From Bacteroidota bacterium (GTDB taxonomy: Bacteria > Bacteroidota > Ignavibacteria > Kryptoniales > JAKASW01), in contig JAJYRM010000005.1 of NCBI GenBank assembly GCA_021794075.1, positions 6,620-70,619 on the forward strand: 64,000 nucleotides of DNA, in the 5' to 3' direction. Shown here piece after piece: positions 13,037-62,862 of the stretch. Both the position numbers and the translations under genes were made by a program. Position 1 is the stretch's first letter; each line of letters opens with the position of its first letter. A model generated the notes under the pieces. That model saw nothing but the letters and a program-made list of their open reading frames with translations. It was not told the origin of the DNA and did not search any database.

Positions 13037-13729
13037 CTACCAGGCCGATACTACTTTTCCGTATAGAACAAGCTTCCCTGTCACGTGCATACTGTTTTCC
13101 AATATGACCCCGTCCGGACCAATCATGGGAGAGTGACAATAGTAGCATGTCTGAAGGGTTATGCCCTTCCCGTTATGCGTCGCATCGTTAGGAGGAAGAC
13201 CGTGACAGCTTCCGCAAGAGTCCTGGCTCGAGTTAACGACGTTCCATGTCGGTGAAGAGTTGTTCCCGCCCTTGAAGTTTCCGTGGCAGTAAGTGTTGGA
13301 ACACTTCAGAGTCTTCGCGTTGAACGAAGGTTGAGGCGTTACCGTGGCGAGGGTGCTGTCATAGAATCGTGTACCCGGTGTATTCGTCTCCGTCATCGCG
13401 ACACCCGAGAAAGTCACGAGAGTCGCGGACGATATGCCGCCCGGATGAATTCCGGGACCAATTGAGGTGGGCACAATGTGACAGGTCGAGCATTCCACCG
13501 TCGAGGCGAACGCGCTCCCGTTTAGATGCACCTGGTGGGCTCCCACGAAAGGAGATGCGGTGCTGGTGTCACCCGCCGCGTCAGGAGGAGGGGCCGGGTT
13601 CATCACGCTTCCGTGGCACGAACTGCAATTCGCCGTCGCAAGGACGCCTGTGTTTTGAAGTTTGCTGCACGATGCCAGCGTCAGTCCTGCAGCAATTATG
13701 AATACTAATCCAAATCGTGTTTTCATCAT
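13037..13729 (-). CDS. Lipoprotein c-type cytochrome (4 CXXCH + 1 CX4CH)
   Basis: I took the start at ATG 13729 (MMKTRFGLVFIIAAGLTLASCS, lipobox LASC). Haem motifs are CSSCH, CSTCH, CSNTYCH, CGSCH and CYYCH. The unit CSNTYCHG...W...CGSCHGLPP resembles the Geobacter CxxxxCH...CXXCH repeat family (TIGR01904, recalled from memory). The start overlaps the upstream stop as TAATG. Confidence 0.85.
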   Translation of the reverse strand: MMKTRFGLVFIIAAGLTLASCSKLQNTGVLATANCSSCHGSVMNPAPPPDAAGDTSTASPFVGAHQVHLNGSAFASTVECSTCHIVPTSIGPGIHPGGISSATLVTFSGVAMTETNTPGTRFYDSTLATVTPQPSFNAKTLKCSNTYCHGNFKGGNNSSPTWNVVNSSQDSCGSCHGLPPNDATHNGKGITLQTCYYCHSPMIGPDGVILENSMHVTGKLVLYGKVVSAW

Positions 13730-14991: not shown

Positions 14992-15002
14992 TTGCGCCTC
15001 CG

Positions 15003-16481: not shown

Positions 16482-16536
16482 AACCCACCTTCCTTTATGA
16501 ACAAAAAAATGAACGAACCCGACGACTGCGCGAGCC

Positions 16537-17088
16537 TTACTGCTGAGGAACTGGGTGAGCTATCTTAGCCCACATAGTTTTGAAGTCGAATCCCTTGAAG
16601 GTCGGGCTCTTCTTGTTATGGCAGGTTTCGCAGAATTTCTCCGCGCTGCCGTCTTTAACCGAGAGGAGCGTAAGACCGTGGGCGACAGCTTCTTTCTCGT
16701 TCTTCATAATGTCCATCTTCATATAGTCCTTGCCGGGGCCGTGGCACGTTTCGCACTGCACGCCGTCTTCTTTGCTGAATCTCGGACCGAGCTGAGAAGC
16801 GGGAGCGTTGTACGCTGTTTCATGGCACTGCACGCACTCAGGTGCATCGGCAGGGCTACCCTTTATTCCTCTCGCTTCGGCGATCTTCTTAGCTTCCGGG
16901 GTCAAGAGGGTTTTATAAGCCTGAGAGTGCTTGCTCGCTTCCCATTTCTGGAATTGCTCGCCACTCTTCGGGGTTCTGTGGCACATGGCGCATACCTTCA
17001 CTCCGACGTACTGGTGGCTGGGTTCAGCGGCCAGCGAAACGGCAGAGGTCAGGGCAAGCGCCATAACCACTAGTGTTAGTGTTTTCAT
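16537..17088 (-). CDS. Secreted tetrahaem c-type cytochrome (cytochrome c554-like family)
   Basis: Start at ATG 17088 (MKTLTLVVMALALTSAVSLAA), preceded by GGAGG. Haem motifs are CAMCH, CVQCH and CETCH x2. The N-terminal pattern CAMCH...W..SKHSQAY is typical of the c554-type multihaem family (PF13435, recalled). Confidence 0.85.
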   Translation of the reverse strand: MKTLTLVVMALALTSAVSLAAEPSHQYVGVKVCAMCHRTPKSGEQFQKWEASKHSQAYKTLLTPEAKKIAEARGIKGSPADAPECVQCHETAYNAPASQLGPRFSKEDGVQCETCHGPGKDYMKMDIMKNEKEAVAHGLTLLSVKDGSAEKFCETCHNKKSPTFKGFDFKTMWAKIAHPVPQQ

Positions 17089-17109
17089 TTGGATACCTCC
17101 ATTTTGATT

Positions 17110-17121
17110 TGGTATATACCA
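17110..17121. promoter_or_regulatory. Perfect 12-bp palindrome TGGTATATACCA in the largest intergenic gap of the cytochrome operon
   Basis: It lies 22 nt upstream of the tetrahaem cytochrome ATG, within the 96-nt gap 17089-17184. Its function is unknown; it could be an operator or an internal promoter element. Confidence 0.3.
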
Positions 17122-17184
17122 GGTAACGTTACAGACGAGACGACCTGAACCGGCCGCTCGCACTTGCATCTTCCTAATATCAAC

Positions 17185-17523
17185 TCAGTTTTTCTTTCCG
17201 CACGCATCGCAATATGTTCTTGTCAAGGCTTTTTCTAACTCCTTCTTGCCGATGAAGGCGGAGCACCGTTCGCAATAACCATAGGTCCCGCTTTTCAACC
17301 TTTGAAGGGCCAACTCAAGCTCCTTGAATTCCGTTTCCATCTTCCTGGCGAGCTCACATCTGTAATCGGGCTCAACTTCGCATCTCTTGTGCTGAATGTC
17401 GCAAACGCTGCATATGTACGCTTCCCCGCTTTCCAAATCGACAAGGTCATCGGGTTTCATATACATCATTTGGAGAACCACGCTAATCCTGTTCCTGATC
17501 AAATTGTTAAAGTGCTCCGTCAT
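17185..17523 (-). CDS. DksA/TraR-family C4 zinc-finger protein (paralogue A)
   Basis: The C-terminal YGYCERCSAFIGKKELEKALTRTYCDAC is CxxC-x17-CxxC, the DksA/TraR spacing. I took the start at ATG 17523 (MTEHFNNL), 8 nt after the upstream stop. The track ORF extends 16 codons further and would overlap the cytochrome gene. Confidence 0.75.
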   Translation of the reverse strand: MTEHFNNLIRNRISVVLQMMYMKPDDLVDLESGEAYICSVCDIQHKRCEVEPDYRCELARKMETEFKELELALQRLKSGTYGYCERCSAFIGKKELEKALTRTYCDACGKKN

Positions 17524-17530
17524 CTGTCGA

Positions 17531-20239
17531 TCAGCTCTCCCTGTCTTTATCTTTGTCTTTCTCATCGTCATCGCTCCCTTTGGGATTTTCTCCGTTCTCT
17601 ACAACGATGTCTCCTGCCTTTTCTTCTTCGCTTAGTATCCTGTCTAATTCCACCGGATGCTCTTCTTCCATCTCCTCTTCGGTGATCGTTCCGAACAGCC
17701 AGGAAAGGTTCATTGGATAGACATCAGGGTTAAAGATTGAGAAGTACATATGCCACACGAGAATCGCGAGGGTCGCTAGAATCGCTTCATAATAATGCAC
17801 GAGTGTCGCTACATCGATCCCGAGAAGAGTGAATCTCCCTACAGTGAAGGTATTGAACCAGAGAAGAAGTCCGGTAAGGACCATCACGGTTGTCCCCCAG
17901 ATGAGCGCCCAGTATTCCGCTTTCTCGATGTAGCTGAACCTATCGAATCGCGGTCGCTTATCGGAAATTCCGAGGTAATACTTCACCGCGTCCCTGACGT
18001 CGGCCGCGTCTTTCAAATTCGGGAGCATGTCTTTGATAAACTGCCTCCCGCGTTGAGTGAAGATTACATAGTACACGTGGTATAACGCCGTCACAATCAT
18101 GATGACTGCGCTGATGCGGTGGATCAGACCACGCAACTCAAACACTCTCTCGCCTCCGCCTCCGATTTCACGGATTAGTCTCACCCACCATGAATCCGGG
18201 AATTTCAACATAAACCCCGTGAAGACAAGAAGAGTGAAGCTCACGAGCAGCCCCCAATGCTGCAGACGTTCGGCCTTGGTCATCCTCACATAGAGTTTCT
18301 TTCCAACATGCTTAAGTTCGGCGGACGGATCTCTTCTGAGTTTCAGTTTCGCCTTCGACTTCTTCACGAAATCGAATACGTTGTGTATCAGCATCATACC
18401 GATAACGCCGAAGATGAGCACCGCGTAGATCTGTGAAATCCAGAAGAGCAGCGGCTGATTGGTCGGCGTGGGAGCGATGTGTACAGGGAACGAAGCAAAT
18501 TTAGCATCGGCTCCAGGATGACACTTACCACATGTCTTGGCAATATTCGCTTTGTTAATTGGAGAATTAGGATCGGACGAAGGTAGTATTTCATGAGCGC
18601 CGTGGCAGCTCGCGCAATTGGCAACGGTCGTCATTCCCCCCTGTTTCGCAAGTCCGTGATAGCTGTCGAGATAACTTCCCACTGCGTGAGCGGGAAGGCC
18701 GTATCTGCTGGTGAGCCTGACTGAACCGTGGCAATGCGAACATGTCTGGACGATGTTGTTCTTGGAAACCGTCGATTGAGGATTGTTCGGAGCAAGTATC
18801 TGATGGTCGCCGTGGCAACTGGTGCACACGGGAGCGCTGTTGTTGCCGTTTTCCATGGCCTTGCCGTGAATCCCGGCCATGTAACGCTTCTCGATCCCAG
18901 AGTGACACCCGCTTTGACCGCAAGTAGCAGGGATATTATTCCTGAATATTCTGGATTTCGGATTTCCCGCGGGAAGCATACTGTGGGCGCCGTGACAATC
19001 GCTGCACGTGGCAGCCTTTAGATTTCCCTTTTCGAGCGCGACGAGATGGACGCTATATTTAATGCTCTCAAGGAACGGACGCGACACACCCACCATCTTA
19101 AAGACAGTCTTGTTATCCAAATGGCAACGCAGACATGTCTTGGGCTCATTCTGCCTGCTCACCGGCGATTCGGGATTGCTGACGGAAACAACGTTGTGAT
19201 CGTTATGACAATCCGTGCAAACCGGAGCAACCGCGAGCCTTTCCTTGTAAGCTTTTCCATGGGAAGACTCCAGGTAGTCAGCCGCTTGCTTCTGGTGACA
19301 TTTGGCACAAGTCGATACAATATTCAACCTGTTGACTGGCGAAGCTGTGTCGCTGGCCGCAAGCATGGAGTGCGAACCATGACAGTCCACACAGGTCGCC
19401 CCCTTGCCGGTTTTCCTGAGCGACTCAACATGAATGCTGTGTTCGTAGGAGTCGACAAATGACGTCATAGGCTTGCCGTTGGCCGCCTTCATCCCCTGGA
19501 AGAGCTTCGGATTAGAGTGACACTTGTAGCAAGCTTCCGAAACATTCTTCTTGGATACATGGGGATCGTGAGCGCTATGGCATGAAACACAAGTCACCGT
19601 GCCTTCGTCAAAAGCCTTCTTATGCACGCTATGGTTAAGATCAGAGGCAACACCTTTGTGGCACTGCATGCAAAGCGAGTCGATCTTCACTCCCTGCAAC
19701 GAAGCGACAGTCTTCACGTCATGAGCCTTGCCATGGCACGTCACGCACGTGAACGGCTCCTTGCCGACGGTTGCCTTCGCATGCGCCGACTGGAGAAACA
19801 CCTTCTTTGAAGCGTGACACGATATACACTTTGCGTCTACTACGATTTTGCTGGCAGGCTTGATATCATGCGTGCCGTGACAGCTCCAGCATTTCACCGA
19901 AGAATGCGCCAAATGGTAATTCGCGCCCTTGGGCGCTAGAAGATTGACGCTGTGACACTGGTCGCAGTCAACGTTTGGAGAGGTCTGTTTGTGAGGCACA
20001 TCATCGGCGCTGAATCCTTGATGACAGTCCGTGCAAGCGACCCCCGCGTCTCCGTGTACCGAGGAACTGAAGATGGCAGGATTGACGTACAGACTGATTG
20101 TCTTCCCATCCTTCTGCATTGTCAAAGTGGAATCGGAGTGACACGCAAGGCAATCGTCGTTTGAGCTGGCAAAAATAGGTCGTGCGAAAAGCGAATTTAA
20201 AAGAATAATGGTAAGTAATGAGAGTAATCTAATTTTCAT
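17531..20239 (-). CDS. Multihaem c-type cytochrome (18 CXXCH + 1 CX4CH) fused to an FdnI/HydC-type cytochrome b membrane domain (CbcL-like quinol oxidoreductase candidate)
   Basis: Signal peptide MKIRLLSLLTIILLNSLFARPIFA. I counted 19 haem motifs, including five tandem paired-CXXCH modules. The C-terminal ~300 aa has 5 hydrophobic helices with ERLQHWGLLVSFTLLVFTG, LIHRISAV..LYHVYY and LVHYYEAI..VWHMY, the His pattern of PF01292-type dihaem b. Confidence 0.85.
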   Translation of the reverse strand: MKIRLLSLLTIILLNSLFARPIFASSNDDCLACHSDSTLTMQKDGKTISLYVNPAIFSSSVHGDAGVACTDCHQGFSADDVPHKQTSPNVDCDQCHSVNLLAPKGANYHLAHSSVKCWSCHGTHDIKPASKIVVDAKCISCHASKKVFLQSAHAKATVGKEPFTCVTCHGKAHDVKTVASLQGVKIDSLCMQCHKGVASDLNHSVHKKAFDEGTVTCVSCHSAHDPHVSKKNVSEACYKCHSNPKLFQGMKAANGKPMTSFVDSYEHSIHVESLRKTGKGATCVDCHGSHSMLAASDTASPVNRLNIVSTCAKCHQKQAADYLESSHGKAYKERLAVAPVCTDCHNDHNVVSVSNPESPVSRQNEPKTCLRCHLDNKTVFKMVGVSRPFLESIKYSVHLVALEKGNLKAATCSDCHGAHSMLPAGNPKSRIFRNNIPATCGQSGCHSGIEKRYMAGIHGKAMENGNNSAPVCTSCHGDHQILAPNNPQSTVSKNNIVQTCSHCHGSVRLTSRYGLPAHAVGSYLDSYHGLAKQGGMTTVANCASCHGAHEILPSSDPNSPINKANIAKTCGKCHPGADAKFASFPVHIAPTPTNQPLLFWISQIYAVLIFGVIGMMLIHNVFDFVKKSKAKLKLRRDPSAELKHVGKKLYVRMTKAERLQHWGLLVSFTLLVFTGFMLKFPDSWWVRLIREIGGGGERVFELRGLIHRISAVIMIVTALYHVYYVIFTQRGRQFIKDMLPNLKDAADVRDAVKYYLGISDKRPRFDRFSYIEKAEYWALIWGTTVMVLTGLLLWFNTFTVGRFTLLGIDVATLVHYYEAILATLAILVWHMYFSIFNPDVYPMNLSWLFGTITEEEMEEEHPVELDRILSEEEKAGDIVVENGENPKGSDDDEKDKDKDRES

Positions 20240-49062: not shown

Positions 49063-51819
49063 CTATCTGTCACCATTTGCGGACTTGTCTAGCACTTCCC
49101 TGATTTTTCTGAGCACATCGTTCGGGCTATACGGCTTTTGAATGAATCTGTCGACGCCGATTTCGAGCATCTTCTGCCGGTCCGCATCGCCTACGAATCC
49201 ACTTACCAATATCACCTTCACTTTGGGATTTAACTTCCTCATCTCCACGAACAGATCGAGCCCACCCACTTTAGGAAGCCCGATATCTGATACGACAAGC
49301 TGCACACTTCGGTCATCAAGAAACAAGGCAAGGGCTGCTTCCCCATCATCAGCCGTAAGTACCTTGTATCCATGGCTTCTCAAAATATCGGAAAGCAGCT
49401 CCCTTAGTCCGGGCTCATCTTCAACCACAAGGATACTCTCATTCCCACCCGGCGCCGCATCCGAGCGGGCGAACGCCGGATCGGATTGATGGTCAGCCCG
49501 CGCGCGCGCCGGCAGGAGAAGCGTGAATGTCGAACCCTTTCCCGGCTCGCTCTCAACTTCGATGATCCCTTCATACGAGCTGACGATCCCATAGACAGTC
49601 GACAACCCAAGCCCCGTTCCTTTTCCTCTCTCCTTAGTGGTGAAGAACGGTTCGAAAATCCTTTGTTTAGTATCTTCGCCGAAACCGACGCCGGTATCAG
49701 AAACGGCTATGAGTGCGTAAGTGTCCGCTTGCGCCATCGGGTGCCTCTGCTGAACGTCGCTGCCTTTTTCCAGCCGGGACGAGATCGTCAGCGTGCCTCC
49801 CGCCAAGACACCTGCGGGGCGATCCATCATTGCATCACGGGCGTTTACGCAGAGATTCAGAACCGCCTGGTGGATCTCCGTTTGATCGCAGTTGACTAGA
49901 AGCTCTCCATCGGCAGCAGACATCTTCATGGAGATTACTTTGGGGAAAGTTTCCTTAACCATTTTATAAACATCGTCTACGATAGAGGTGACATCGAGCG
50001 TTTGAAGGACTCGTTCCTGTTTCCTGGCGAACATCAGTAGCTGGCGGACAAGACCCACACCCCGCTCCGCCGCGGACTCGATTGAATGTACATTGCGCTC
50101 GAGGATCTTGTCTTCTTTAGCAGAGCGCAATGTGAGAGTGGCATAGCCAATTATTATCCCCAGTAAATTATTGAAGTCGTGCGCGATGCCTCCTGCGAGT
50201 GTGCCGATACTCTCCATCTTCTGAGCCTGGCGGAGCTGCTCCTCAAGCGCAACCTGAGACGTCACATCGCGGGCGATGCCAAGTATGCCGGTCGAGCCGT
50301 CCTCCATCGTAAAACGGGTAGTGCTGGCTTCCACCACGATGTAGCTTCCCGATTTGCTCCTAATTCGAAATGTCTCAAAATCCGAAAGCTCGCCATTGAT
50401 CGCCGACTGAAACAGCTTCGCTGCTGAAGGCAAATCATCCGGATGAAGCAGATCAGTAAAGCTCTTTCCGATCCACTCATCCGGTCTCCATCCGGTAATG
50501 GTTCCAAAGGCCGGATTAACACTCAATATCCTCCCTTCGCTCGATACTGCATATATGGCGTCACGCGCACCTTCCACAAGCTTGCGATACCTCTCTTCTG
50601 AACGTCGAAGTGATTCCTCGGCGCGCCACCTTTCTGTGATGTCCTGCGCGATAGTTATTGCATAACGCAGGCTCCTGTCTTCACCACGGATCGCAGAGAT
50701 GGTAAGGTGGACTCTGATGATCCTGCCGTCCTTCCTGAGATATCTCTTTTCGAACTGTACAATCTCACATTTCCCGGACTGAAGGTCGGCCATCATCTTC
50801 ATGCCTATGCCCGTGTCATCAGGGTGGGTGAAATCGTTGAAATGTCTATGCTGGAGTTCGTCGGCTTCATATCCGAGCAGTTTTGTCGCCGCAAGGTTTG
50901 CTTTCAAAATCCGCCCGTCAGGAGTCACATTGGTCATGGCGACCGGGGACGACTCAAAAATGCCTCTAAACATCTCCTCGCTTTCGCGCAGCGCTAGCTC
51001 TGTTTGCCTGGATATGGTAATGTCTCTTATCATCGCAAGGACGGATATTTCATGGTCCACTTGCATCGGCGAAAGCATAATGTCGGCGGGAAACTCACTT
51101 CCGTCCTTTCGTTTTGCCACCAGCTCGAGTCCCGAGTTCAATGCGCGGGCATGAGGGGCAATTCTGTAAGAACCCATGTGACCACGATGCATTCCTTTGA
51201 ATCTGTCAGGTATTAGAATTTCGAGCGGCTGACCGATAAGTTCGTCCTTACTATATCCGAACATATTCTCGGTGTGTACGTTCGCGAAAGTGATCAGGCC
51301 ATCGGAGTCCACAATGATTGCGGAATCTGGCGCGCAATCGAGGAGCCCCCTGAACCTGGCTTCGCTCTGTTTGAGATTTTCCAGGGCCGACTCGCGTCGC
51401 ATCTCCGACAGCTTCAACTCTTCTTTCGCTTTGGATTCAGTTATTGCTCTACGAACTGCCGGAGCCAACCTCGCCATCTTGGATTTCAACACGTAATCTG
51501 TCGCCCCTTGTAATACGCACTCGATAGCGGCGTCCTCGCCAAGAGTGCCGGAAACAAATACAAATGGAACCTCGGGAACGCACGCTTTAGTTATCGTGAG
51601 CGCTTCCCTCCCGTCAAACGAAGGAAGAGATAAATCCGAAAGGATCAGATCATATTTCCCCGTCGCTATTTCAGTTTCAAATTCCGTACGGGTCCTGACT
51701 ACATGGATGCGACAGACAATCCCAGACTCGGCAAGTGTGTCGCGGACGATTTCCGCGTCCATAGCGTTGTCTTCCACATGGAGGATCTTAAAAGCAAGTT
51801 GGTCATCCGTATCAAACAT
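49063..51819 (-). CDS. Hybrid sensor histidine kinase (REC, 3 PAS, HisKA, HATPase, REC)
   Basis: N-terminal REC (ILHVEDNAMD...LILSDLSLP). PAS repeats (e.g. SAIIVDSDGLITFANVHTENMFGY). H-box GGIAHDFNNLL, G-box GTGLGLSTVYGIV, and C-terminal REC (ILVVEDEPG...VVSDIGLP). Confidence 0.9.
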   Translation of the reverse strand: MFDTDDQLAFKILHVEDNAMDAEIVRDTLAESGIVCRIHVVRTRTEFETEIATGKYDLILSDLSLPSFDGREALTITKACVPEVPFVFVSGTLGEDAAIECVLQGATDYVLKSKMARLAPAVRRAITESKAKEELKLSEMRRESALENLKQSEARFRGLLDCAPDSAIIVDSDGLITFANVHTENMFGYSKDELIGQPLEILIPDRFKGMHRGHMGSYRIAPHARALNSGLELVAKRKDGSEFPADIMLSPMQVDHEISVLAMIRDITISRQTELALRESEEMFRGIFESSPVAMTNVTPDGRILKANLAATKLLGYEADELQHRHFNDFTHPDDTGIGMKMMADLQSGKCEIVQFEKRYLRKDGRIIRVHLTISAIRGEDRSLRYAITIAQDITERWRAEESLRRSEERYRKLVEGARDAIYAVSSEGRILSVNPAFGTITGWRPDEWIGKSFTDLLHPDDLPSAAKLFQSAINGELSDFETFRIRSKSGSYIVVEASTTRFTMEDGSTGILGIARDVTSQVALEEQLRQAQKMESIGTLAGGIAHDFNNLLGIIIGYATLTLRSAKEDKILERNVHSIESAAERGVGLVRQLLMFARKQERVLQTLDVTSIVDDVYKMVKETFPKVISMKMSAADGELLVNCDQTEIHQAVLNLCVNARDAMMDRPAGVLAGGTLTISSRLEKGSDVQQRHPMAQADTYALIAVSDTGVGFGEDTKQRIFEPFFTTKERGKGTGLGLSTVYGIVSSYEGIIEVESEPGKGSTFTLLLPARARADHQSDPAFARSDAAPGGNESILVVEDEPGLRELLSDILRSHGYKVLTADDGEAALALFLDDRSVQLVVSDIGLPKVGGLDLFVEMRKLNPKVKVILVSGFVGDADRQKMLEIGVDRFIQKPYSPNDVLRKIREVLDKSANGDR

Positions 51820-52522: not shown

Positions 52523-55027
52523 TTAATTAAGAGAAACGATGCGTCCTCTATGAGACAGCACCTGACGAATTCTGACAGCCAATTCATTGAGGTCAAATGG
52601 CTTTTGAATGAAATCCAGTGGTCGGACGCCGTTCGATCCCTCTTCGAATCTATCTAAACTGTATTCAAACATGAAAAGCGTCTTCAGCCCTTCCCTCTGT
52701 CTGGAAATCTTCTTGCTCAGATCCTTCCCGCTCATCTCCGGCATAACTGCGTTCGTCACCAGAAGATGTATCTCTCCTGAATATGACTCCACCAGAACTT
52801 CGGCGTCGACCGGGCTTGAAGAAGCGATGACATTGTATCCGCACTCCTCCAAAAATGTCTTCATCAGAGTCAGCAGATCGGCTTGGGCTTCAACGACAAG
52901 CACGGTCTCAGTACCCCGCATCGATTCATTGGCGGAACGCAGTTCGACATTTTGAACGGCGCCGACGAATCTTGGGATGTAAACCGTAAAACCGCTTCCC
53001 TTCCCGAGTTCGCTCTTCACTTCGATAGTACCACCGCTCTGCTTGAGAATTCCGTAGACCGTCGAGAGCCCTAATCCCGTGCCGTGCCCTTTAGGTTTAG
53101 TAGTGAAGAAAGGTTCAAAGAGACGCTTCAAAGTCTTCTCGTCCATCCCACGGCCATCGTCCTCAAATTCTACGGTAACGTACTCACCCGGAGCAAGGCG
53201 CAATCCTGTAGGAATATCTTCTCTTGTGAACTTCCTATTGAAAGTTTTTACGGTAATCGTCCCTTCGCCTTCGATCGCATCTTTAGCGTTAGTCACCAGG
53301 TTAACGACAATCTGGTCAAACTGAGTCGGATCAATCTTCACGTTCCAGAGCCCGCTTTCAGGAACAAAGACCAGCCGGATCTTCTCTCCGATAATTCTAT
53401 GCAACATGTTTACTATCGAGTCGATGGAAGAGTTTATGTTTATTACTTTGGGAGAGACAATATCTTTCCTTGCGAAGGCGAGGAGTTGCCTGGTCAGGTC
53501 GGCTCCGCGCTTAGCCGCGGCAAGTATGGATTCTATCGGCTTCCTGGCAGGATCGTCATCCGTGAGTTTTCGTCTCAAGAGGTCGCTATAACCCACCACG
53601 ACATTCAGGATGTTGTTGTAATCGTGCGCCACTCCGCCAGCGAGCTGCCCGATTGCCTCAAGCTTCTTGGATTGGAGAAGCTGTTCCTCCAAAAGCTTGC
53701 GAGCAGTAATGTCCTGCTTGACGGCGACGAAGTTCGTGATCTCCCCGCGATCGTTTCGCACCGGAGTGATGGTCATTGACTCGTCATAGAGAGATCCGTC
53801 TTTGCGTCTGTTCACGAGCTCTCCGTGCCAAACGTTCCCGGACAGAATCGAATCCCACATGTCCTTGTAGAAAGTCAGCTTTTGCTTTCCTGAGCTCACC
53901 AGCTCTTTTGGGCTCTTGCCGGTTACCTCATCGAGCGAGTAACCGCTTAGCGCCTCGAAGGCCGGGTTCGCCCAGACTATGTTGCCCTCCCTGTCAGTAA
54001 TGATAACAGCGTTCCCTGCCGAGTTCAGTGCCGTAATGCGAAGATGAATCTCTTCCCGCAGCTCCCGCAGTTGTGTTACATCTTTCACGATCGTCTGAAC
54101 CGCGGACTCGCCTCTGAAAACAACCGGCATGCTGGATATTTCGACAAATGCAACTGACCCGTCAAGTTTCAGTAACTTCCCTTCGGTGGGCCGCGACGAA
54201 ATTCCTTCTTCACCAGGTTTTGCCAGGAGAGTCGAAACGAGTTCTCGCGAATCGGGATGAACAAATGTCATTATTGACTTCCCAAGAAGCTGCTCCGATG
54301 AATCAGCCTTCAGCAACTTCAATGAAGCCGGGTTAAGATGCAGGAATCTCGCGCGAGCGTGGATCACGATCGCGTCCGGTGAGGCATCAATGAATGAGAT
54401 GTAACGCGATTCGTTTTCTTGCGCGAATTCTTCGGACCTTCGCATATCGTCGCGCTCTTCTTCCGCCACCCGCAGTGCCAGTCGCACCCGCCGAGTCGCA
54501 AAAATCGAGACCGACGCCGCCAAAAAAAGGAAGAAGATATGCGGCAGGAGCATGCCCAACGAAAGTCCTCTCGATAAGGAATGGATTAATCCGTCCCTGA
54601 TTAGAAGCGCAAAGATAATTTCCGTCACGGCACAAACAGCTGCCGCAAAATATCCAGCCCGCTTTCCGAAAAGAAGTCCCGCCGTAACGACAACCAAAAG
54701 GTATCGATTGTTGTCGAGAGGTATCCGGTTTGAATAAAGAACACCGACAAGCGTCAAAACTCCCCACGCAGTTATGAGTAGAAGAATAATTGCGGGCCTT
54801 GTTCTTCCGCTTGAGTTCATCTTAAGACCGACACAAAACGCAGCTGTCATAGGAAGGAAGAAAGTCATCCACACGATAGAATTAGCCGGATGAACAATCG
54901 TGAGTGCTGCCCAAAGCAGCGTCAAAGCACCGGTCGATAGCCAAATATAGTAGTAGAAGTCCCACGCGAGTGAGCCCGTCTTAGGATCGCCCACAGTGGC
55001 AGGCTTGAATGGCAAATTCATATTCAT
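52523..55027 (-). CDS. Membrane-bound hybrid sensor histidine kinase (~6 TM, 2 PAS, HisKA, HATPase, REC)
   Basis: Hydrophobic N-terminal ~190 aa. PAS (DAIVIHARARFLHLNPASLKLL; NAVIITDREGNIVWANPAFEALSGY). H-box GGVAHDYNNIL, G-box GTGLGLSTVYGIL, and C-terminal REC. Confidence 0.9.
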   Translation of the reverse strand: MNMNLPFKPATVGDPKTGSLAWDFYYYIWLSTGALTLLWAALTIVHPANSIVWMTFFLPMTAAFCVGLKMNSSGRTRPAIILLLITAWGVLTLVGVLYSNRIPLDNNRYLLVVVTAGLLFGKRAGYFAAAVCAVTEIIFALLIRDGLIHSLSRGLSLGMLLPHIFFLFLAASVSIFATRRVRLALRVAEEERDDMRRSEEFAQENESRYISFIDASPDAIVIHARARFLHLNPASLKLLKADSSEQLLGKSIMTFVHPDSRELVSTLLAKPGEEGISSRPTEGKLLKLDGSVAFVEISSMPVVFRGESAVQTIVKDVTQLRELREEIHLRITALNSAGNAVIITDREGNIVWANPAFEALSGYSLDEVTGKSPKELVSSGKQKLTFYKDMWDSILSGNVWHGELVNRRKDGSLYDESMTITPVRNDRGEITNFVAVKQDITARKLLEEQLLQSKKLEAIGQLAGGVAHDYNNILNVVVGYSDLLRRKLTDDDPARKPIESILAAAKRGADLTRQLLAFARKDIVSPKVININSSIDSIVNMLHRIIGEKIRLVFVPESGLWNVKIDPTQFDQIVVNLVTNAKDAIEGEGTITVKTFNRKFTREDIPTGLRLAPGEYVTVEFEDDGRGMDEKTLKRLFEPFFTTKPKGHGTGLGLSTVYGILKQSGGTIEVKSELGKGSGFTVYIPRFVGAVQNVELRSANESMRGTETVLVVEAQADLLTLMKTFLEECGYNVIASSSPVDAEVLVESYSGEIHLLVTNAVMPEMSGKDLSKKISRQREGLKTLFMFEYSLDRFEEGSNGVRPLDFIQKPFDLNELAVRIRQVLSHRGRIVSLN

Positions 55028-56854: not shown

Positions 56855-57316
56855 TTAAAGGCAATAGAAAGGAGGTGCGCGTCCTGCGTAGGATGAGACT
56901 GGACTTGACTGCTCAGAGAAGCTTTCGGCATCCGGAAGAACTGTGTAAGGATTGGGTACAAAAAGACTCACGGTAACTACAGCGGGGCTTACGGCGGTTT
57001 GAGCGAAGAGCTGCGCGGGGCATGTGTGCGCTCTCGGTGCCAGAATGAGTGCGCATGAAAACGGGTTTAACTCAGGCTGGCGATTCACGCTTTCGAAAGG
57101 AAGTGAGCCGAACCGCCCAAGCTGGAATGAGCCGACCACTACAAAATAAATCACCAGAACGTAGCCGGCGACGCTTCTTCGACTGTCCGCTGACATTCGT
57201 TTCCCGTCTCTCATGAATATAGTGACGCTATCGGCGGCGAATAAGTTCCTGAGAAGCCATTCGACATCGAAGGACTCGACTATTCCCTCCCTATCCCTGT
57301 CCGGACATGGTGACAC
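56855..57316 (-). CDS. Hypothetical protein with one predicted TM helix
   Basis: The ORF fills the gap between the acetate-kinase paralogue and the propeller gene on the same strand. The hydrophobic segment is VAGYVLVIYFVVVGSF. The start is GTG and I recognised no family. Confidence 0.35.
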   Translation of the reverse strand: MSPCPDRDREGIVESFDVEWLLRNLFAADSVTIFMRDGKRMSADSRRSVAGYVLVIYFVVVGSFQLGRFGSLPFESVNRQPELNPFSCALILAPRAHTCPAQLFAQTAVSPAVVTVSLFVPNPYTVLPDAESFSEQSSPVSSYAGRAPPFYCL

Positions 57317-57354: not shown

Positions 57355-58455
57355 TCAGAAAGTCATCGTCGTCGCAAGCCTAGAGCGACAGTAGCTTTCC
57401 GCTATCAGTCGGTCGAGCGTATCCTGCATAAAGAAGAGCGCTGGATGGAATGGCGCGGAAGATGCTCCGATTAATTTCGGGATAAGGCGTCCTGCAAGTC
57501 TATCTGCCGCTTCGACATATCTCCCCGAGAACGCGACAGTATCGAACCCGCCCATGACGCTCATCGCCGCTCCGCAGCTCAGGAGAATTCTGTACTCAAG
57601 CAAGTCGCTCGCCTTTTCAAAATCTCTCCCTCCGCGGAGCACTTCAGCTATGGTCGCGTTTCTGCCAACGAGGGCCGTGACCCCACTTTTCCTGGAGAGC
57701 ATCTCGTTAATCCTCTCGGGGCCCCATTTCTTTTTCTCCTCGAGGAGCAGAATAATCCCAGGATCGAGTTCTCCACAGGTCGAGTTACCAGGCAGCCCCT
57801 CGAGTGGAGTGGATCCGCCCGAGACAGTCACCGGCTTCCCGTCATAGATACCCGCCACCTCCGGAATCGGCTCGAGACATATCGACAATATTTTTCTCGC
57901 ATCGATTCCTCTCTCCTTGATTTTGCCGGCAAGCGCGCCGTGGAACAGTCCGTGATAGCCATAACGTCGAATGTCCCCAAGACCTTCGCCGTAGGCTTCA
58001 GAGAGATTCCCATCGATGGCGTAAGTTCTTTCGCCGAGCGGCAGGTTGGCGAAGAACGCGGTTTCAAAGAAAAGGTAAATCTCCGGCGTGGGAACGATTC
58101 GCTCCAGCGCCTTAAGCAATCTGACCGAGGGGGGAATGTGTAACGGGGACCGCGCCGCAAGCGATTCGAGTCGTTCGAGTATCGACCTGTCATAAATCTG
58201 CGTTCTCTTGAATTCCTCACCGCCGTATAGAATTCGTACGGCAATTGCCTCGGGGGAATATTTTCCTATAAGCTTGCGAAGCTCTTCCAGTGACAGGCCC
58301 TCGCCTCTGAACCTAATCTTTCCCGTCCACTCTAAACTGCAGGCTTCCCATGGTTTTGTGGCGTGACCGTCCGTCGCCACCGAGTCTGACTCGACAGAAT
58401 AGACATGGTACTCTATGAAATAACCTTCAGGAATTAATACAATCAACCTGCTCAT
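57355..58455 (-). CDS. Acetate-kinase-fold paralogue with degenerate catalytic motifs (pseudo-kinase candidate)
   Basis: It is collinear with the adjacent AckA. LIVLIPEGYFIEY corresponds to FVLNCGSSSLKY, FFETAFFANLP to VLDTAFHSTIP, RRYGYHGLFHG to RKYGFHGISHQ, GNSTCGELDP to MSTRCGDLDP, and FSGRYVE to FTDTIGE. Confidence 0.7.
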   Translation of the reverse strand: MSRLIVLIPEGYFIEYHVYSVESDSVATDGHATKPWEACSLEWTGKIRFRGEGLSLEELRKLIGKYSPEAIAVRILYGGEEFKRTQIYDRSILERLESLAARSPLHIPPSVRLLKALERIVPTPEIYLFFETAFFANLPLGERTYAIDGNLSEAYGEGLGDIRRYGYHGLFHGALAGKIKERGIDARKILSICLEPIPEVAGIYDGKPVTVSGGSTPLEGLPGNSTCGELDPGIILLLEEKKKWGPERINEMLSRKSGVTALVGRNATIAEVLRGGRDFEKASDLLEYRILLSCGAAMSVMGGFDTVAFSGRYVEAADRLAGRLIPKLIGASSAPFHPALFFMQDTLDRLIAESYCRSRLATTMTF

Positions 58456-59689
58456 CTAAACTTTCTCCTTCCTCAGAACCCGATGAATCACGTTCCTGCG
58501 AGACAAAAAGCTCGTAGGAGTTCTTAGCGATTGCCAGCTCTTCATTCGTCTTTACAACAATTATGCGTACCCGGCTGTCCTTCGCCGCAATGTCAGTCGG
58601 GAATTGTGAGACTTTCTTATTCTTCCACTCGTCGAGTTTTACCCCGAAGAATTCCAAATTTCTGCAGACGGCTTCCCGGACGTACGGAACGGACTCGCCT
58701 ATAGTATCAGTGAAGACTATGGCGTCCGCATGTCCCACCACCGTCAGATACGCTCCCATGTATTTTCTTATTCGCCATAGGTAGACATCGAGCGTCATCT
58801 GGGATCTCTCATCGTCAGTCTTCGTCGCGCGAGAGATAACATCCCTAATATCCGATGAAATGCTTGACATGCCCAGGACGCCGCTCTTCTTGTTGAGGAG
58901 GTCATTTACCTTCGAGTAGTTTCCTCCGGAATACGCGATCAACTTCAGGATGAGTGCCGGATCCAAATCCCCGCATCTTGTACTCATGACCAATCCCTGG
59001 AGGGGTGAGAATCCCATCGTATTGTCCACGGACTTCCCCCCAACCACCGCGCAGATGCTGGCGCCTCCCGAACCTAGATGACAGCTGACCGCATTTAGTT
59101 CCTGGAGCGGAATGTGTAAATAGTCCGACGCCGCGCGAGTGACGTATTGATGACTGATCCCATGGAATCCATATTTCCTAATCCCAAGCTGGCCCGCTAT
59201 ATCCGAAGGAATCGGATATGTGTACGCATAGCTCGGTATAGTCGAATGAAACGCCGTGTCGAGGACTACGGCCTGAGGAATCCCAGGATAACCCCTCTTG
59301 CACTCTTCGATAATCTCGACGACCGGCGGATTGTGTATTGGAGCGAGGCCCTTAATAAGTTCGAGAGCCTCAAAGTCGTCGTCCCTTATGATACTGTTGG
59401 AGGGAAACTCCGTCCCACCCTGGACGAGACGGTGAGCAAAGATATCCGGAGACGCGCCGGACTCGCCTGCCAGGAGCTTCATGACTTCGGAGAAAGCTTC
59501 CCTGTAACCCTTCACGCTGACGCGGCGCACGATTTCGCCTCTCGAGTCGTGATGGACTATTCTCGATGACTCCGCTGTCTTGGCCCCGATCCGCTGCACT
59601 TCTCCGCCCAAAATCTCTTCCTCTGAAGGCATGGATATCATCCTGTACTTCAAAGAAGAACTTCCGCAATTCAAAACGAATATGTTCAT
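58427..59689 (-). CDS. ackA: Acetate kinase
   Basis: MNIFVLNCGSSSLKY, HRLVQGG, APIHNPP, VLDTAFH, KYGFHGISHQY, HLGSGGASICAV, STRCGDLDP and FTDTIGES. Confidence 0.92.
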   Translation of the reverse strand: MNIFVLNCGSSSLKYRMISMPSEEEILGGEVQRIGAKTAESSRIVHHDSRGEIVRRVSVKGYREAFSEVMKLLAGESGASPDIFAHRLVQGGTEFPSNSIIRDDDFEALELIKGLAPIHNPPVVEIIEECKRGYPGIPQAVVLDTAFHSTIPSYAYTYPIPSDIAGQLGIRKYGFHGISHQYVTRAASDYLHIPLQELNAVSCHLGSGGASICAVVGGKSVDNTMGFSPLQGLVMSTRCGDLDPALILKLIAYSGGNYSKVNDLLNKKSGVLGMSSISSDIRDVISRATKTDDERSQMTLDVYLWRIRKYMGAYLTVVGHADAIVFTDTIGESVPYVREAVCRNLEFFGVKLDEWKNKKVSQFPTDIAAKDSRVRIIVVKTNEELAIAKNSYELFVSQERDSSGSEEGESLDEQVDCINS

Positions 59690-59780: not shown

Positions 59781-61010
59781 TCATATTTCAAGATCCGACG
59801 TCCAGCCGAACACCGGCACGCCGACGAGACTGTGGACGATAGAAGAAGTTCCTAGGATCGCTTCGGTGATTTTGTCCGTCTCTACGTATTCATTTTCAGA
59901 ATGGGCAGCTTCTTCGAGTCCGGGACCGTAACCGACCGTGGGTATATTGAACCGCTTTGTTAGGATGCTTCCCGCGGTGCCCATTCCGAGATGCGGAAGC
60001 TTCCATTTGCCAGGTTGGTTCTTGCAACCGGCCAAAGCGAGGGCTTCGCGCGCGCGATCCATTAGAGGTGAGAATGGATTCGTCTCCCACGCGTTGCTGA
60101 GGAAGCGAACTTGCACCGTCTGCCCACTCTGCAATCTCTGAACTTCTTCCCTTACCTTGATATCGAACTTCAGGTTGTGTTCAGGAGAAATATTCTGCAG
60201 GCTGTAGTCACGAATTCGCTCAGCGAGTTTATCCGTGTCATCATCCGGAAAGAGCCTGCGGTTGAAACTTATCAGGACATTCCCTGATTCAGTGGCAAAC
60301 TTCGGCTTTTCAACGTTCATAAGTTCCAGGTAGCCTGGTAGGCCCTTCAGTTCACTCGCGTTCAACAGATTTTGAAAGACAACTTTCGCGGCGTCCTGGA
60401 GATAGTTTGGATTCGGCGAATCCATGCCTATTCTAAATTCCACCCATCCGTCGTGCCCGTAGAAAAGACCAAGCCCAGTCGGCTCTCCGAGGATCGCGTA
60501 ATCCACCTTGATATTCATTTCAGCAAGCGTCTTGGAAATCAGATGCTGCACTCCGAGACTTAACCCGTTTTCTTCAGACACCGTTGCGGCTACAATCAAA
60601 GTCCCTCGCAGCGGAAGCATTATACGCTTAAGGAGGTATCCGGCGTAGATTTGCGCGGCAAGTCCCCCTTTACAGTCAGAGCTCCCAACACCATGGAGCT
60701 TTCCCCCCGCCAGCTCGCCGGAATACGGAGGCACTTCCCACAAACCTTCCTTCTCGTTTGGAGCGACAGTGTCCATGTGGCTGTTGAGGAGTACGACCGG
60801 TGATGGATCGATTCCATAAATAATTCCGAACACGTTTCCGAAGTCATCCACGATGACTTTGTCATAGCCTAACTGATACATCCTTTTCTCGACGAGCCTG
60901 GCGACGCTGTTCTCGCAGAGACTTGGACTTGGTGTTCTGACGAGATCTGACGCAAACTCCGCGGCTTGCTTGGCAAGGTAGTTCGCGTGTTCTTTCAGAA
61001 GTGTGTACAT
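59781..61010 (-). CDS. M20-family metallohydrolase (ArgE/DapE/YgeY-like)
   Basis: Start at ATG 61010 (MYTLLKEHANYL). Metal-ligand motifs are LLNSHMDTVAP, GVGSSDCKGGLAAQ and TVSEENG, with C-terminal AHSENEYV. Confidence 0.85.
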   Translation of the reverse strand: MYTLLKEHANYLAKQAAEFASDLVRTPSPSLCENSVARLVEKRMYQLGYDKVIVDDFGNVFGIIYGIDPSPVVLLNSHMDTVAPNEKEGLWEVPPYSGELAGGKLHGVGSSDCKGGLAAQIYAGYLLKRIMLPLRGTLIVAATVSEENGLSLGVQHLISKTLAEMNIKVDYAILGEPTGLGLFYGHDGWVEFRIGMDSPNPNYLQDAAKVVFQNLLNASELKGLPGYLELMNVEKPKFATESGNVLISFNRRLFPDDDTDKLAERIRDYSLQNISPEHNLKFDIKVREEVQRLQSGQTVQVRFLSNAWETNPFSPLMDRAREALALAGCKNQPGKWKLPHLGMGTAGSILTKRFNIPTVGYGPGLEEAAHSENEYVETDKITEAILGTSSIVHSLVGVPVFGWTSDLEI

Positions 61011-61044: not shown

Positions 61045-61060
61045 GTCAATGGGCATGCCG
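61045..61060 (-). promoter_or_regulatory. Sigma54-like -24/-12 element CGGCATG-CCCA-TTGAC (imperfect) upstream of the M20/ackA operon
   Basis: The minus strand reads CGGCATGCCCATTGAC with correct GG-N10 spacing and GA instead of GC at -12. The predicted TSS lies about 24 nt upstream of ATG 61010. An A/T tract lies immediately upstream, and an inverted repeat is centred about 80 bp further up. Confidence 0.4.
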
Positions 61061-61218: not shown

Positions 61219-62862
61219 ATGAGAGCTGAAGACTTAAGGCTAGACGAGATAGTAAATTTTTCGGAAGGGACCCTTACTCTTCGCGGGCGAGAGGTAGTGC
61301 TCCACAGCCTTCACGCGTTCGCGCAGATAAGGAAAGATCTCATAGACACTGCCGGTCTCGAACACGCGAGGAGCATTCTTTCGAGATTCGGCTATTTCCA
61401 GGGACAGGCAGATGCTTCCGACCTCATGAACAATTTCAAGTGGGATGACAAGGAAGAATTAATTCGCGCGGGATGCAAGCTTCACTCGCTGGAGGGGATC
61501 GCGAGAGATATTGTAAACACGCTAGAATACGACCCGGACTCCGGGCACTTCAGGATGGAAATAAGCTGGTACGATTCCAAGGAAGCGCAGGAACATCTTT
61601 ACACGATCGGTCAATCAAGCGAACCTATTTGCTGGATACTCACCGGCTATTTCACGGGTTTCGTCTCGTTAAGTCTTGGCATGGATGTCTATTTCATCGA
61701 GCAATCCTGCAAGGCACAAGGGCAAAATGTTTGCCACGCCACAGGTAAAGACCTCGCTTCATGGGGCGATGCCATCAAGCCGTTTGTCGACTACCTTAAA
61801 ACCCATGACATAAAGTTGAGGATCGAAAAGCTCACGGAGCAACTTAAGCAGAAATCTTCCCTCTTGAAGAAATACGAGAAAGAGATCGCCGCGCTGGGTA
61901 CCGCAGCAAAGCCGTCGTTCATAGAGATTCACAGCAAAGCCTACAAACAAGTCCTTCTCATCGCCAACAAAGTAGCGCGTTATGATTCAACAGTCCTCAT
62001 AACAGGAGAGACCGGCGCGGGAAAGGAAGTCCTCGCGAAGTACATTCACAGGATGTCGCCGCGCTCCAAAGAATCTTTCGTTGCGGTAAACTGCGGAGCA
62101 CTTCCGGAATCTCTTCTCGAAAGCGAATTGTTCGGACACAAGGCCGGCGCTTTCACCGGCGCTGTAAAAGACAGGATCGGCTTATTCGAGGAAGCGGACA
62201 AAGGGACCATATTCCTGGATGAGATTGGCGACATTAGCGAGGCAATGCAGTTGAAGATACTCAGGGTGCTCCAGGAGCGCGAGATCATGAGGGTCGGGGA
62301 AAGCGCGGCTAGGAAAGTCGACATCAGGATAATCGCCGCCACTAACAAAGACCTGCAAGACATGATCACGCACGAGAAGTTCAGGGAGGACCTCTACTAC
62401 AGGCTTAGCGTCATGGAACTGAAGGTTCCGCCGCTTCGCGAGCGCAAGGAGGACATACTCCCTCTTACACGATTCTTCATAGACAGGATATCGAAGAAGC
62501 TCCATATCCGAAACCTGCATATAGACTCCTCGTGCATCGACTATCTGCAGGATTACGGCTGGCCTGGAAACGTGAGGGAGCTAGAAAACGTGATAGAGCG
62601 GGCCGCGATACTGAGTCCTGACGGAAATATTCTGCCGCAGCACCTCCCCCCTTCCGTCGTCAACATGAGCAAGAAGTCATTCAATGCTGTCCTCGATACC
62701 AATCCGTCGCTTGATGAAATGGAGCGGGCTTATATCGAACGCGTGCTGAACCTCACGAACGGGAACAAGTCGAAGGCGGCTCGCATTCTCGGTATAGACG
62801 TCTCCACGCTATGGAGAAAGCTTAAGTCAGGCGCGTCCCACCAGGTGGGCGGCGGGAAATGA
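61219..62862 (+). CDS. Sigma54-dependent transcriptional activator with an XylR-N/V4R-type sensory domain
   Basis: Start at ATG 61219 (MRAEDLRLDEIVNFSEGTL). The N-terminal ~200 aa resembles XylR/DmpR-type V4R sensors. AAA+ motifs are GETGAGKE, HKAGAFTGAV and ESELFGH. The C-terminal HTH is AARILGIDVSTLWRKL. Confidence 0.88.
   Translation: MRAEDLRLDEIVNFSEGTLTLRGREVVLHSLHAFAQIRKDLIDTAGLEHARSILSRFGYFQGQADASDLMNNFKWDDKEELIRAGCKLHSLEGIARDIVNTLEYDPDSGHFRMEISWYDSKEAQEHLYTIGQSSEPICWILTGYFTGFVSLSLGMDVYFIEQSCKAQGQNVCHATGKDLASWGDAIKPFVDYLKTHDIKLRIEKLTEQLKQKSSLLKKYEKEIAALGTAAKPSFIEIHSKAYKQVLLIANKVARYDSTVLITGETGAGKEVLAKYIHRMSPRSKESFVAVNCGALPESLLESELFGHKAGAFTGAVKDRIGLFEEADKGTIFLDEIGDISEAMQLKILRVLQEREIMRVGESAARKVDIRIIAATNKDLQDMITHEKFREDLYYRLSVMELKVPPLRERKEDILPLTRFFIDRISKKLHIRNLHIDSSCIDYLQDYGWPGNVRELENVIERAAILSPDGNILPQHLPPSVVNMSKKSFNAVLDTNPSLDEMERAYIERVLNLTNGNKSKAARILGIDVSTLWRKLKSGASHQVGGGK

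Follow-up and report, generated by a model that had tools for sequence, protein, structure and literature searches.

Acetate kinases are homodimers, and the enzyme is treated as a simple ATP-dependent housekeeping protein to which the acetate kinase of Entamoeba (EhACK) is the sole known exception in its phosphoryl donor. In the Methanosarcina thermophila enzyme (MtACK), whose residue numbering is used throughout, N211 and G331 contact the ATP phosphates and G239 hydrogen bonds with N211; the substitutions N211S and G239S each lower specific activity ~200-fold, and G331 governs the choice of nucleoside triphosphate (PMC4390882). EhACK departs from all ATP-dependent enzymes by an extra Gly in the PHOSPHATE2 motif, by Thr at 211, Ser at 239, and Gln at 331, and by an Asp directly before residue 331; as of 2017, apart from Entamoeba, just four sequences, all from Anaerolineaceae, were known to have the extra Gly and Asp330, and the determinants and origin of donor use by the Entamoeba enzyme were unresolved (PMC5517563). 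Here we analyze a 64,000-nucleotide stretch of DNA (the window) from a Bacteroidota bacterium of the Kryptoniales (contig JAJYRM010000005.1, positions 6,620 to 70,619), in which the gene for a 420-aa acetate kinase, ACK*, is followed by an overlapping gene for a degenerate 366-aa paralogue, psiACK. Our comparisons indicate that psiACK belongs to a retained family of pseudo-kinases and that ACK*, the type of a group that we call DT-type, has an Entamoeba-like active-site signature.

Paralogues that partner a catalytic relative are known from other systems. In bacterial N6-threonylcarbamoyladenosine (t6A) synthesis, TsaB (YeaZ) is a paralogue of TsaD (YgjD) within an essential complex (PMC9654439). 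As proposed here for psiACK and ACK*, a paralogue accompanies the catalytic subunit, and the proteins are of the same acetate and sugar kinase/Hsp70/actin (ASKHA) superfamily; TsaB-TsaD belongs, however, to another ASKHA family with other chemistry and has a third subunit, TsaE, and its complex is proven, whereas that of psiACK and ACK* is predicted. The prozymes of trypanosomatids are dead paralogues of S-adenosylmethionine decarboxylase (AdoMetDC) and deoxyhypusine synthase that raise the activity of an impaired partner as a heteromer (PMC5201418, PMC3663545). A dead paralogue beside an active one is common to both cases, and ACK* carries substitutions that by themselves cripple MtACK, but the prozymes are eukaryotic, lineage-restricted, and of another fold, and activation by psiACK is hypothetical. 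In the open-access literature, we found no description of a degenerate acetate kinase paralogue, of the gene module reported below, or of bacterial partners of Entamoeba-like kinases; work on the M20/V4R/sigma-54 combination and on acetate kinase in Pontiella likewise gave no account of the ACK*/psiACK pair.

psiACK Is an Acetate Kinase Paralogue Lacking Nucleotide-Binding Motifs

The two genes and their overlap are as follows.

57355 to 58455, minus strand: psiACK, the 366-aa degenerate acetate kinase paralogue (pseudo-kinase); from the open reading frame (ORF), Pfam PF00871, and residue mapping to 1G99
58427 to 59689, minus strand: ACK*, the 420-aa acetate kinase of the extended-PHOSPHATE2-loop (Entamoeba-like) type; from PF00871, TIGR00016, and alignment to EhACK (PDB 4H0O)
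58427 to 58455, minus strand: 29-nt overlap between the stop region of ACK* and the start of psiACK; from the ORF coordinates, and the same in loci L005, L092, and L093

A preliminary description of the locus, made from the sequence alone, had reported a 29-nt overlap between an acetate kinase and its paralogue. The ORF coordinates indeed share this interval, which probably reflects translational coupling, and the psiACK start (MSRLIVLIPEGYF) is kept in relatives. The paralogy is equally clear: the two proteins share 28% identity (BLASTP E value 3e-29) and are thus homologous, and both match PF00871, ACK* with 376.6 bits and psiACK with 113 bits against a cutoff of 22. With respect to TIGR00016 (cutoff 293.4), ACK* passes at 369.6 and psiACK fails at 102.5; psiACK is below all NCBIfam cutoffs, and far below that of every equivalog.

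The residues of psiACK were placed by a phmmer alignment to M. thermophila AckA (1G99) and by a 130-sequence MAFFT alignment anchored on an MtACK sequence, which was right at 20/20 landmark positions and appears to agree with the 1G99 stretch. These two independent alignments give one register, ruling out misregistration as the source of the residue losses and showing that the earlier by-eye alignment was sound. The motif changes read from it (NCGSSSLK to IPEGYFIE, DTAFH to ETAFF, HLGSGGAS to CLEPIPEV, and STRCGDLDP to NSTCGELDP) are all correct, as is the retention of the GYHGxxH segment. Specifically, in PHOSPHATE1 N7 is replaced by Ile, S10 by Gly, S12 by Phe, and K14 by Glu (IPEGYFIE); D148 is replaced by Glu and H152 by Phe (ETAFF); in PHOSPHATE2, H208 is replaced by Cys, G210 by Glu, N211 by Pro, and S214 by Glu (CLEPIPEV); R241 has become Thr (NSTCGELDP); G331 of the ADENOSINE motif is Arg (FSGRYVEA in the window protein); and the Mg ligand E384 is Leu. 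R91, H123, H180, H184, P232, and D246 are retained.

Thus, psiACK has none of the PHOSPHATE1 (N7, S10, S11, S12, K14), PHOSPHATE2 (HLGNGxS), or ADENOSINE (FT[AG]GIGEN) motifs, and of the catalytic set it has R91 and H180 and has replaced D148, R241, and E384, which is not the complement of a competent kinase. Compared with the canonical kinases AckA, TdcD, and PduW (PF00871, TIGR00016), it keeps R91, H123, H180, P232, and the TPLEG and CG[DE]xDP cores, but unlike them it is without all three motifs and without N7, D148, R241, and E384. It is unlikely that psiACK is a kinase acting on another substrate, as had been suggested for the paralogue, because the protein retains neither the Mg ligand nor any of the three nucleotide/phosphate motifs; that idea may apply to ACK* instead.

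psiACK Is a Widespread Family under Purifying Selection

The family was aligned as 127 psiACK homologues of at least 300 aa within the 130-sequence MAFFT alignment. The motif replacements of the window protein hold across this family, which has motifs of its own, ETAFF, CLEPxPE, T[TS]CGExDP, and FSGR[YF]. Among the residues that this family has at the lost catalytic positions, F152, C208, L209, and G330 are each present in 127/127 homologues, and E148 (113/127), E210 and P211 (116/127 each), P213 (120/127), E214 (126/127), Thr or Ser at 241 (118/127), S329 (124/127), and Arg or Lys at 331 (125/127) are nearly invariant. The older contacts are mostly retained (R91 in 100/127, L122 in 108/127, H123 in 111/127, H180 in 114/127, and P232 in 127/127). 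The blocks that line the cleft are the best conserved parts of the protein, and the N and C termini are poorly conserved.

An AlphaFold2 model of psiACK, computed from a 45-sequence alignment, has a mean predicted local distance difference test score (pLDDT) of 86.1 and a predicted template modeling score (pTM) of 0.87. The model superposes over its full length on AckA crystal structures, the top Foldseek hits, with a template modeling (TM) score of ~0.78, and psiACK thus combines the PF00871 match with the two-domain ASKHA fold of canonical acetate kinases. Between the window and two relatives with 75% protein identity, the ratio of nonsynonymous to synonymous substitution rates (dN/dS) of psiACK is 0.08 to 0.13; in the same comparison, the three neighboring genes, encoding the kinase, an M20 protein, and a regulator, have values of 0.04 to 0.07. 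psiACK therefore joins the loss of catalytic residues with purifying selection, as expected of a prozyme-like partner subunit.

Among the matches listed in a protein search, 120 psiACK relatives scored 223 to 819 bits, compared with ~110 bits to solved acetate kinases. In a scan of one genome per species, at least 565 genomes encoded a psiACK relative, and the carriers belong to 10 or more bacterial phyla. The best 80 of these carriers include Kryptoniota/Ignavibacteria-type Bacteroidota, Planctomycetota, Verrucomicrobiota/Kiritimatiellia (including the cultured Pontiella), Lentisphaerota, Sumerlaeota, Fibrobacterota, Auribacterota, Omnitrophota, Spirochaetota, Elusimicrobia, Gemmatimonadales, and Myxococcota. 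When 1.84 billion cluster representatives were searched with a profile, 2,665 representatives at 50% identity had E values of 1e-30 or less; each of the best 150 reaches 276 bits or more, and some true kinases may be among the lower-scoring matches. psiACK is kept by purifying selection and is no decaying pseudogene. Retention of the degenerate paralogue, as first proposed from the single locus, is thus borne out by the dN/dS values, by 127 homologues with their own motifs, and by the full acetate kinase fold of the model; against decay in relatives, which would have spoken against it, stand the intact ORFs of similar length in hundreds of genomes.

ACK* Has an Entamoeba-Like Active Site Signature

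ACK* was examined through 74 orthologues, the kinases directly upstream of psiACK in 74 loci. N7, S10 to S12, K14, H123, D148, H180, R241, and R285 are invariant (74/74), and R91, P232, and E384 (73/74 each), V93 (72/74), and F179 (66/74) are nearly so. With its catalytic and acetate-pocket residues and its TIGR00016 score, ACK* is an acetate kinase by sequence. It is not, however, of the canonical AckA type, which it resembles in these residues and from which it differs at positions 211, 239, 330, 331, and 335 to 336. Four segments, invariant or nearly so among the orthologues, form its signature: NCGSSSLK; HLGSGGAS, in which N211 is replaced by Ser and PHOSPHATE2 has one extra Gly; MSTRCG, in which G239 is Ser; and FTDTIGE[TS]V, in which A330 is Asp, G331 is Thr, and N335 and S336 are changed. 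N211, G239, and G331 are thus all missing, and the PHOSPHATE2 loop is longer than standard. The preliminary description had credited the 420-aa protein with every acetate kinase hallmark, which holds for the catalytic residues but not for positions 211, 239, and 331 (Ser, Ser, and Thr), the additional Gly, or Asp330.

These changes are those of the Entamoeba type as defined by a second PHOSPHATE2 Gly, an Asp before 331, and a non-Gly residue at 331 (PMC5517563). In alignment, the window ACK* and EhACK (4H0O) read CHLGSGGAS/CHLGTGGSS, GLVMSTRCGD/GLVMSTRCGD, and VFTDTIGESV/VFTDQMGLEV. With EhACK and the putative pyrophosphate (PPi)-type kinases of Anaerolineaceae (PMC5517563), ACK* shares the HLG[ST]GG[AS]S loop, Ser/Thr211, Ser239, Asp330, a non-Gly residue at 331, Val336, and all catalytic residues. 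A third group of kinases, here called DD-type, has HLGTGGSS and FTDD[IV]G and corresponds to the Anaerolineaceae-type sequences. Positions 331 to 332 distinguish the three: Thr-Ile in ACK*, which keeps Glu334, Gln-Met in EhACK, and Asp-Ile/Val in the DD-type kinases. In overall score, ACK* matches the T. maritima and M. thermophila enzymes better than EhACK.

In a neighbor-joining (NJ) tree (154 columns, 200 bootstraps, with the distances of very divergent pairs capped), ACK* sequences form one clade (200/200), DD-type kinases group with EhACK (116/200), and ACK*, DD-type kinases, and EhACK stand apart from the canonical kinases and the pseudo-kinases (165/200). Judged by this tree and the signature, ACK* is no canonical housekeeping AckA and belongs to an extended-PHOSPHATE2-loop clade with EhACK. 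Because it groups with EhACK in this clade, it probably interconverts acetate and acetyl phosphate with an altered phosphoryl-partner specificity, possibly for PPi or phosphate (Pi).

Two Lentisphaerota loci also carry a canonical ackA (L033:2319-3596 and L035:2347-3606), located immediately upstream of the sigma-54 activator gene that stands beside ACK*/psiACK. Both proteins have the usual HLGNG and FTGGIGENS. Since both kinds of kinase occur in one genome in these cases, ACK* is not redundant with canonical ackA.

A search of the protein collection with a 158-aa EhACK fragment yielded chiefly short pieces of genes, with none from Entamoeba, and the DD-type signature emerged from its matches; one of them (P0171) proved to be a canonical acetate kinase. 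In two of the loci, a frameshift divides the DD-type kinase gene at one and the same position, after YTYALP and before GFRKYGFHG (L090:4537-5735 and L091:4523-5741). The split is probably a selection artifact, as a fragment query favors short proteins, or an assembly error.

ACK* and psiACK Are Inherited as a Pair

Where loci were collected through psiACK, the gene directly upstream is ACK* in every case in which the contig extends far enough, and both genes are present in 74 loci. As this sample is biased by the route of collection, metagenome contigs were also scanned with patterns derived from ACK*: psiACK comes next in 35/35 cases in which a DT-type kinase has 1 kb or more of sequence downstream, and two apparent exceptions to the pairing were resolved. 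The survey of the tandem pair thus covers at least 10 phyla and finds the pairing from either side. The psiACK start lies within 30 nt of the ACK* end in 67/74 loci and overlaps it in 53/74, mostly by 4 nt and by 29 nt in the lineage of the window. Such start/stop overlap is a usual sign of translational coupling between subunits, and the tight coupling fits a role of psiACK as a partner of ACK*. In co-occurrence (74 loci; 35/35) and coupling (overlap in 53/74), the pair again behaves as expected of a prozyme-like partner and its enzyme. The long psiACK ORFs of some loci are upstream extensions in another frame.

The DD-type kinases have a pseudo-paralogue of their own. A degenerate acetate kinase-like gene, psi2, follows the kinase in 17/23 DD-type loci and in 2/3 loci reached by another route, and these pairs have neither an M20 gene nor an activator. 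psi2 is more degenerate than psiACK, with N7 replaced by Asp or Glu, R91 by Leu, H180 by Tyr or Asn, R241 by Gly, G331 by Glu or Asp, and E384 by Lys or Arg. psiACK and psi2 form one clade (200/200, NJ), which suggests that kinase and pseudo-kinase were already paired before the DT-type and DD-type kinases diverged. Thus, the earlier view of a pseudo-enzyme beside its active parent stands as regards the retained pseudo-enzyme but not the parentage: psiACK is no local copy of its neighbor but one half of an ancient pair. Moreover, since DD-type kinases have their own pseudo-paralogue and psi and psi2 are one clade, the pseudo-subunit follows the kinase, not the M20 gene or the activator.

The Pair Lies within a Four-Gene Module with a Candidate Sigma-54 Element

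Upstream of ACK*, three further features of the window belong with the pair.

59781 to 61010, minus strand: M20 (ArgE/DapE/LysK-like) metallo-deacylase, the first gene of the operon; PF01546; conserved start ATG at 61010, with the listed ORF extending to 61049
61045 to 61060, minus strand: candidate sigma-54 -24/-12 element, CGGCATGCCCATTGAC; from the sequence, ~35 nt upstream of the M20 start
61219 to 62862, plus strand: divergent XylR/DmpR-type sigma-54 enhancer-binding protein; Pfam XylR_N and V4R sensor, AAA+, and HTH_8

The order activator, M20, [PTA], ACK*, psiACK recurs in the window and in Kryptoniota, Kiritimatiellia, and Phycisphaerae relatives. M20 is upstream of ACK* in nearly all loci and the divergent position of the activator is conserved in most, with the start of each gene conserved; a few DT-type loci (L079, L054) have ACK*-psiACK with no activator detected upstream. 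This setting is a further difference from EhACK, as ACK* is always followed by a pseudo-kinase and lies within an M20/sigma-54 module. The preliminary description had missed the conserved module around the two genes. Pairwise identities of the four module genes correlate (r = 0.77 to 0.89), as expected of a unit inherited together, and all-against-all clustering of ORFs from 81 loci revealed no further conserved neighbor beyond the four genes and, in a few Planctomycetota loci, PTA; the remaining large clusters consist of opposite-strand shadow ORFs.

Over its full length, the activator resembles ligand sensors of the MobR/DmpR/XylR type, and it scores 394 bits against MobR-type V4R regulators, short of the exception cutoff. 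The best NCBIfam matches of the M20 protein, YgeY, ArgE/DapE, and LysK, all fall below cutoff, and we accordingly rejected its naming as YgeY or any other specific enzyme. In alignment with PDB sequences, it has HMDTV, GSSDCKGG, SEEN, GEPT, and AHSENE in the style of M20 metal and catalytic ligands, which we take to be intact in the window protein. A strict TGGCAY-N5-YTGCH element occurs upstream of M20 in the right orientation in 25/63 other loci, compared with ~0.002 expected per locus by our own estimate. The window element, CGGCATGCCCATTGAC, is shared with a 55%-identical relative, and its form in L005 is CGGCATGCCTATTGAA.

In some Planctomycetota, a gene for a PTA_PTB phosphate acyltransferase is inserted between M20 and ACK* (L007:3542-4582, L052, L060, and L082). 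In those lineages, the insertion links the ACK*/psiACK pair to the interconversion of acetyl-CoA and acetyl phosphate.

psiACK as a Possible Partner Subunit of ACK*

We lean toward the view that psiACK serves, without catalysis of its own, as a partner subunit in a heteromeric acetate kinase that possibly does not use ATP. psiACK would keep the acetate kinase fold without the residues for binding ATP and Mg and for stabilizing phosphoryl transfer, and would be the obligate, translationally coupled partner of the upstream ACK*. As it is coupled, strictly co-inherited, and of a fold without an ATP site, it would most simply replace one protomer of the usual homodimer, and a heterodimer with one active site is the most likely arrangement. 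Within it, ACK* would convert acetate and acetyl phosphate, possibly with PPi/Pi, and psiACK could plausibly restore or tune its activity; a prozyme-like activation is plausible because substitutions that ACK* carries (N211S, G239S) alone cripple MtACK. In this lineage, the pair would form the distal half of a sigma-54-dependent operon (M20, ACK*, psiACK) turned on by the divergent XylR/DmpR-type activator on sensing a presumed ligand. Family membership suggests that M20 may deacylate an N-acylated (perhaps N-acetylated) compound, and the acetate released could pass to ACK*/psiACK. The broader proposal, that bacterial Entamoeba-like kinases are heterodimers of a catalytic subunit and a pseudo-kinase using PPi/Pi or another non-ATP partner, is more doubtful, and we put it forward only tentatively.

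Several observations weigh against this scheme. In place of the occluding Gln-Met of EhACK, ACK* has Thr-Ile, and it keeps D283/R285 and Glu334, so that it may use ATP. The clade containing EhACK depends on an NJ tree of 154 columns, in which its support is 82%. EhACK is reportedly active as a recombinant enzyme without such a partner, and 6/23 DD-type loci have no pseudo-partner; the kinase clade as a whole is therefore not strictly partner-dependent. We noticed no ACK*-psiACK fusion among the homologues and loci examined, although no dedicated search was made. The sigma-54 element of the window is weak, GG-N10-GA, with a -12 region that reads TTGA and not TTGC, and the place of M20 in the pathway is a guess from its family. 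Conservation of the former active site of psiACK goes far beyond the needs of a passive scaffold, and the retention of R91, H123, and H180 hints at ligand binding or a chemistry of its own.

This last point bears on an alternative in which psiACK has been neo-functionalized, with its own ligand-binding or catalytic site, and works with ACK* in a pathway; it might then be a sensor of acetyl phosphate or a carboxylate, or an acyl-phosphate-dependent transferase acting through the invariant Cys208. The replaced cleft residues are near-invariant across phyla (C208 in 127/127, E214 in 126/127), the acetyl phosphate/acetate contacts R91, H123, H180, L122, and P232 persist, and the cleft-lining blocks are conserved most, all of which would suit such a site. 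We nevertheless consider this alternative unlikely: psiACK has lost the three ASKHA nucleotide/phosphate motifs together with the Mg ligand E384 and R241, the acidic and basic network of E210, E214, and R331 could merely fill the empty ATP site for stability, and the sister psi2 has also lost R91 and H180, and often H123, so that ligand binding at this site is not shared among the pseudo-subunits. psi2 bears equally on the idea that psiACK mainly regulates the adjacent sigma-54 activator, as an anti-activator or co-sensor reporting acetate/acetyl phosphate status to the operon promoter. The DT-type module nearly always includes the divergent activator, the pairwise identities of psiACK track those of the activator (r = 0.85), and psiACK ends the regulated operon, where feedback anti-activators such as PspA and HrpV are placed. 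Yet psi2 accompanies DD-type kinases in loci that lack both the activator and M20, the translational coupling is with ACK*, and ACK*-psiACK occurs in L079 and L054 where no activator was detected upstream, which makes this idea improbable. The psi2 data argue that a ligand-binding or catalytic role and an activator-feedback role of psiACK would both be secondary.

That psiACK is a recent, decaying tandem duplicate of ackA, or that its residue losses are an alignment artifact, is scarcely credible. Its tandem position, its 28% identity to the neighboring kinase, and its poorly conserved termini could be read in this way, but the intact, similar-length ORFs of hundreds of genomes, the dN/dS of 0.08 to 0.13, the confident model, the family's own motifs, the deep separate clade of pseudo-kinases, and the concordance of two independent alignments refute it.

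Independently of the mechanism, the Entamoeba-like active-site signature is common in bacteria and nearly always accompanied by a conserved pseudo-kinase, and in one large subgroup the pair lies within a portable four-gene sigma-54 module. The labels that annotation pipelines give the two genes, "acetate kinase" or "hypothetical," can lead reconstructions of fermentation and PPi metabolism in uncultured anaerobes astray. If the kinases are PPi-dependent or otherwise non-ATP heterodimers, they would constitute a widespread, overlooked acetate/acetyl phosphate/PPi node in anaerobes of at least 10 phyla, wired in the DT-type to an M20 deacylase and a ligand-sensing sigma-54 activator, and the extended-loop clade would be a likely bacterial source of the Entamoeba PPi-acetate kinase. 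Cultured carriers such as Pontiella offer a testable system for donor specificity, for the role of a dead ASKHA paralogue, and for the acylated compound that feeds the pathway.

Remainder of the Window

The rest of the window is the ordinary chromosomal context of a bacterium of the FCB group, with a PorZ-like protein, multihaem cytochromes, UvrB, and RsmB. Directly downstream of psiACK is an ORF of 153 aa (56855 to 57316, minus strand) with no family match; a gene of 119 to 156 aa is called at this place in L001 to L004 and L093, and none is called in L005 or L092. This small ORF and a pyrroloquinoline quinone (PQQ)-propeller gene downstream of psiACK are conserved in close relatives only. 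Two large PAS-rich hybrid histidine kinases (49063 to 51819 and 52523 to 55027, both minus strand) are encoded downstream of the module. Close relatives share this synteny, but in other phyla the two genes do not accompany the module. A cluster of multihaem c-type cytochromes (13729 to 20239, minus strand) includes a 902-aa protein in which cytochrome c7/MtrC-like repeats are fused to a cytochrome b561-type membrane domain. Near the start of the window, a 1005-aa protein (687 to 3704, plus strand) fuses a glycoside hydrolase family 3 (GH3) glycosidase, with both its N- and C-terminal domains, to a beta-lactamase-fold domain.

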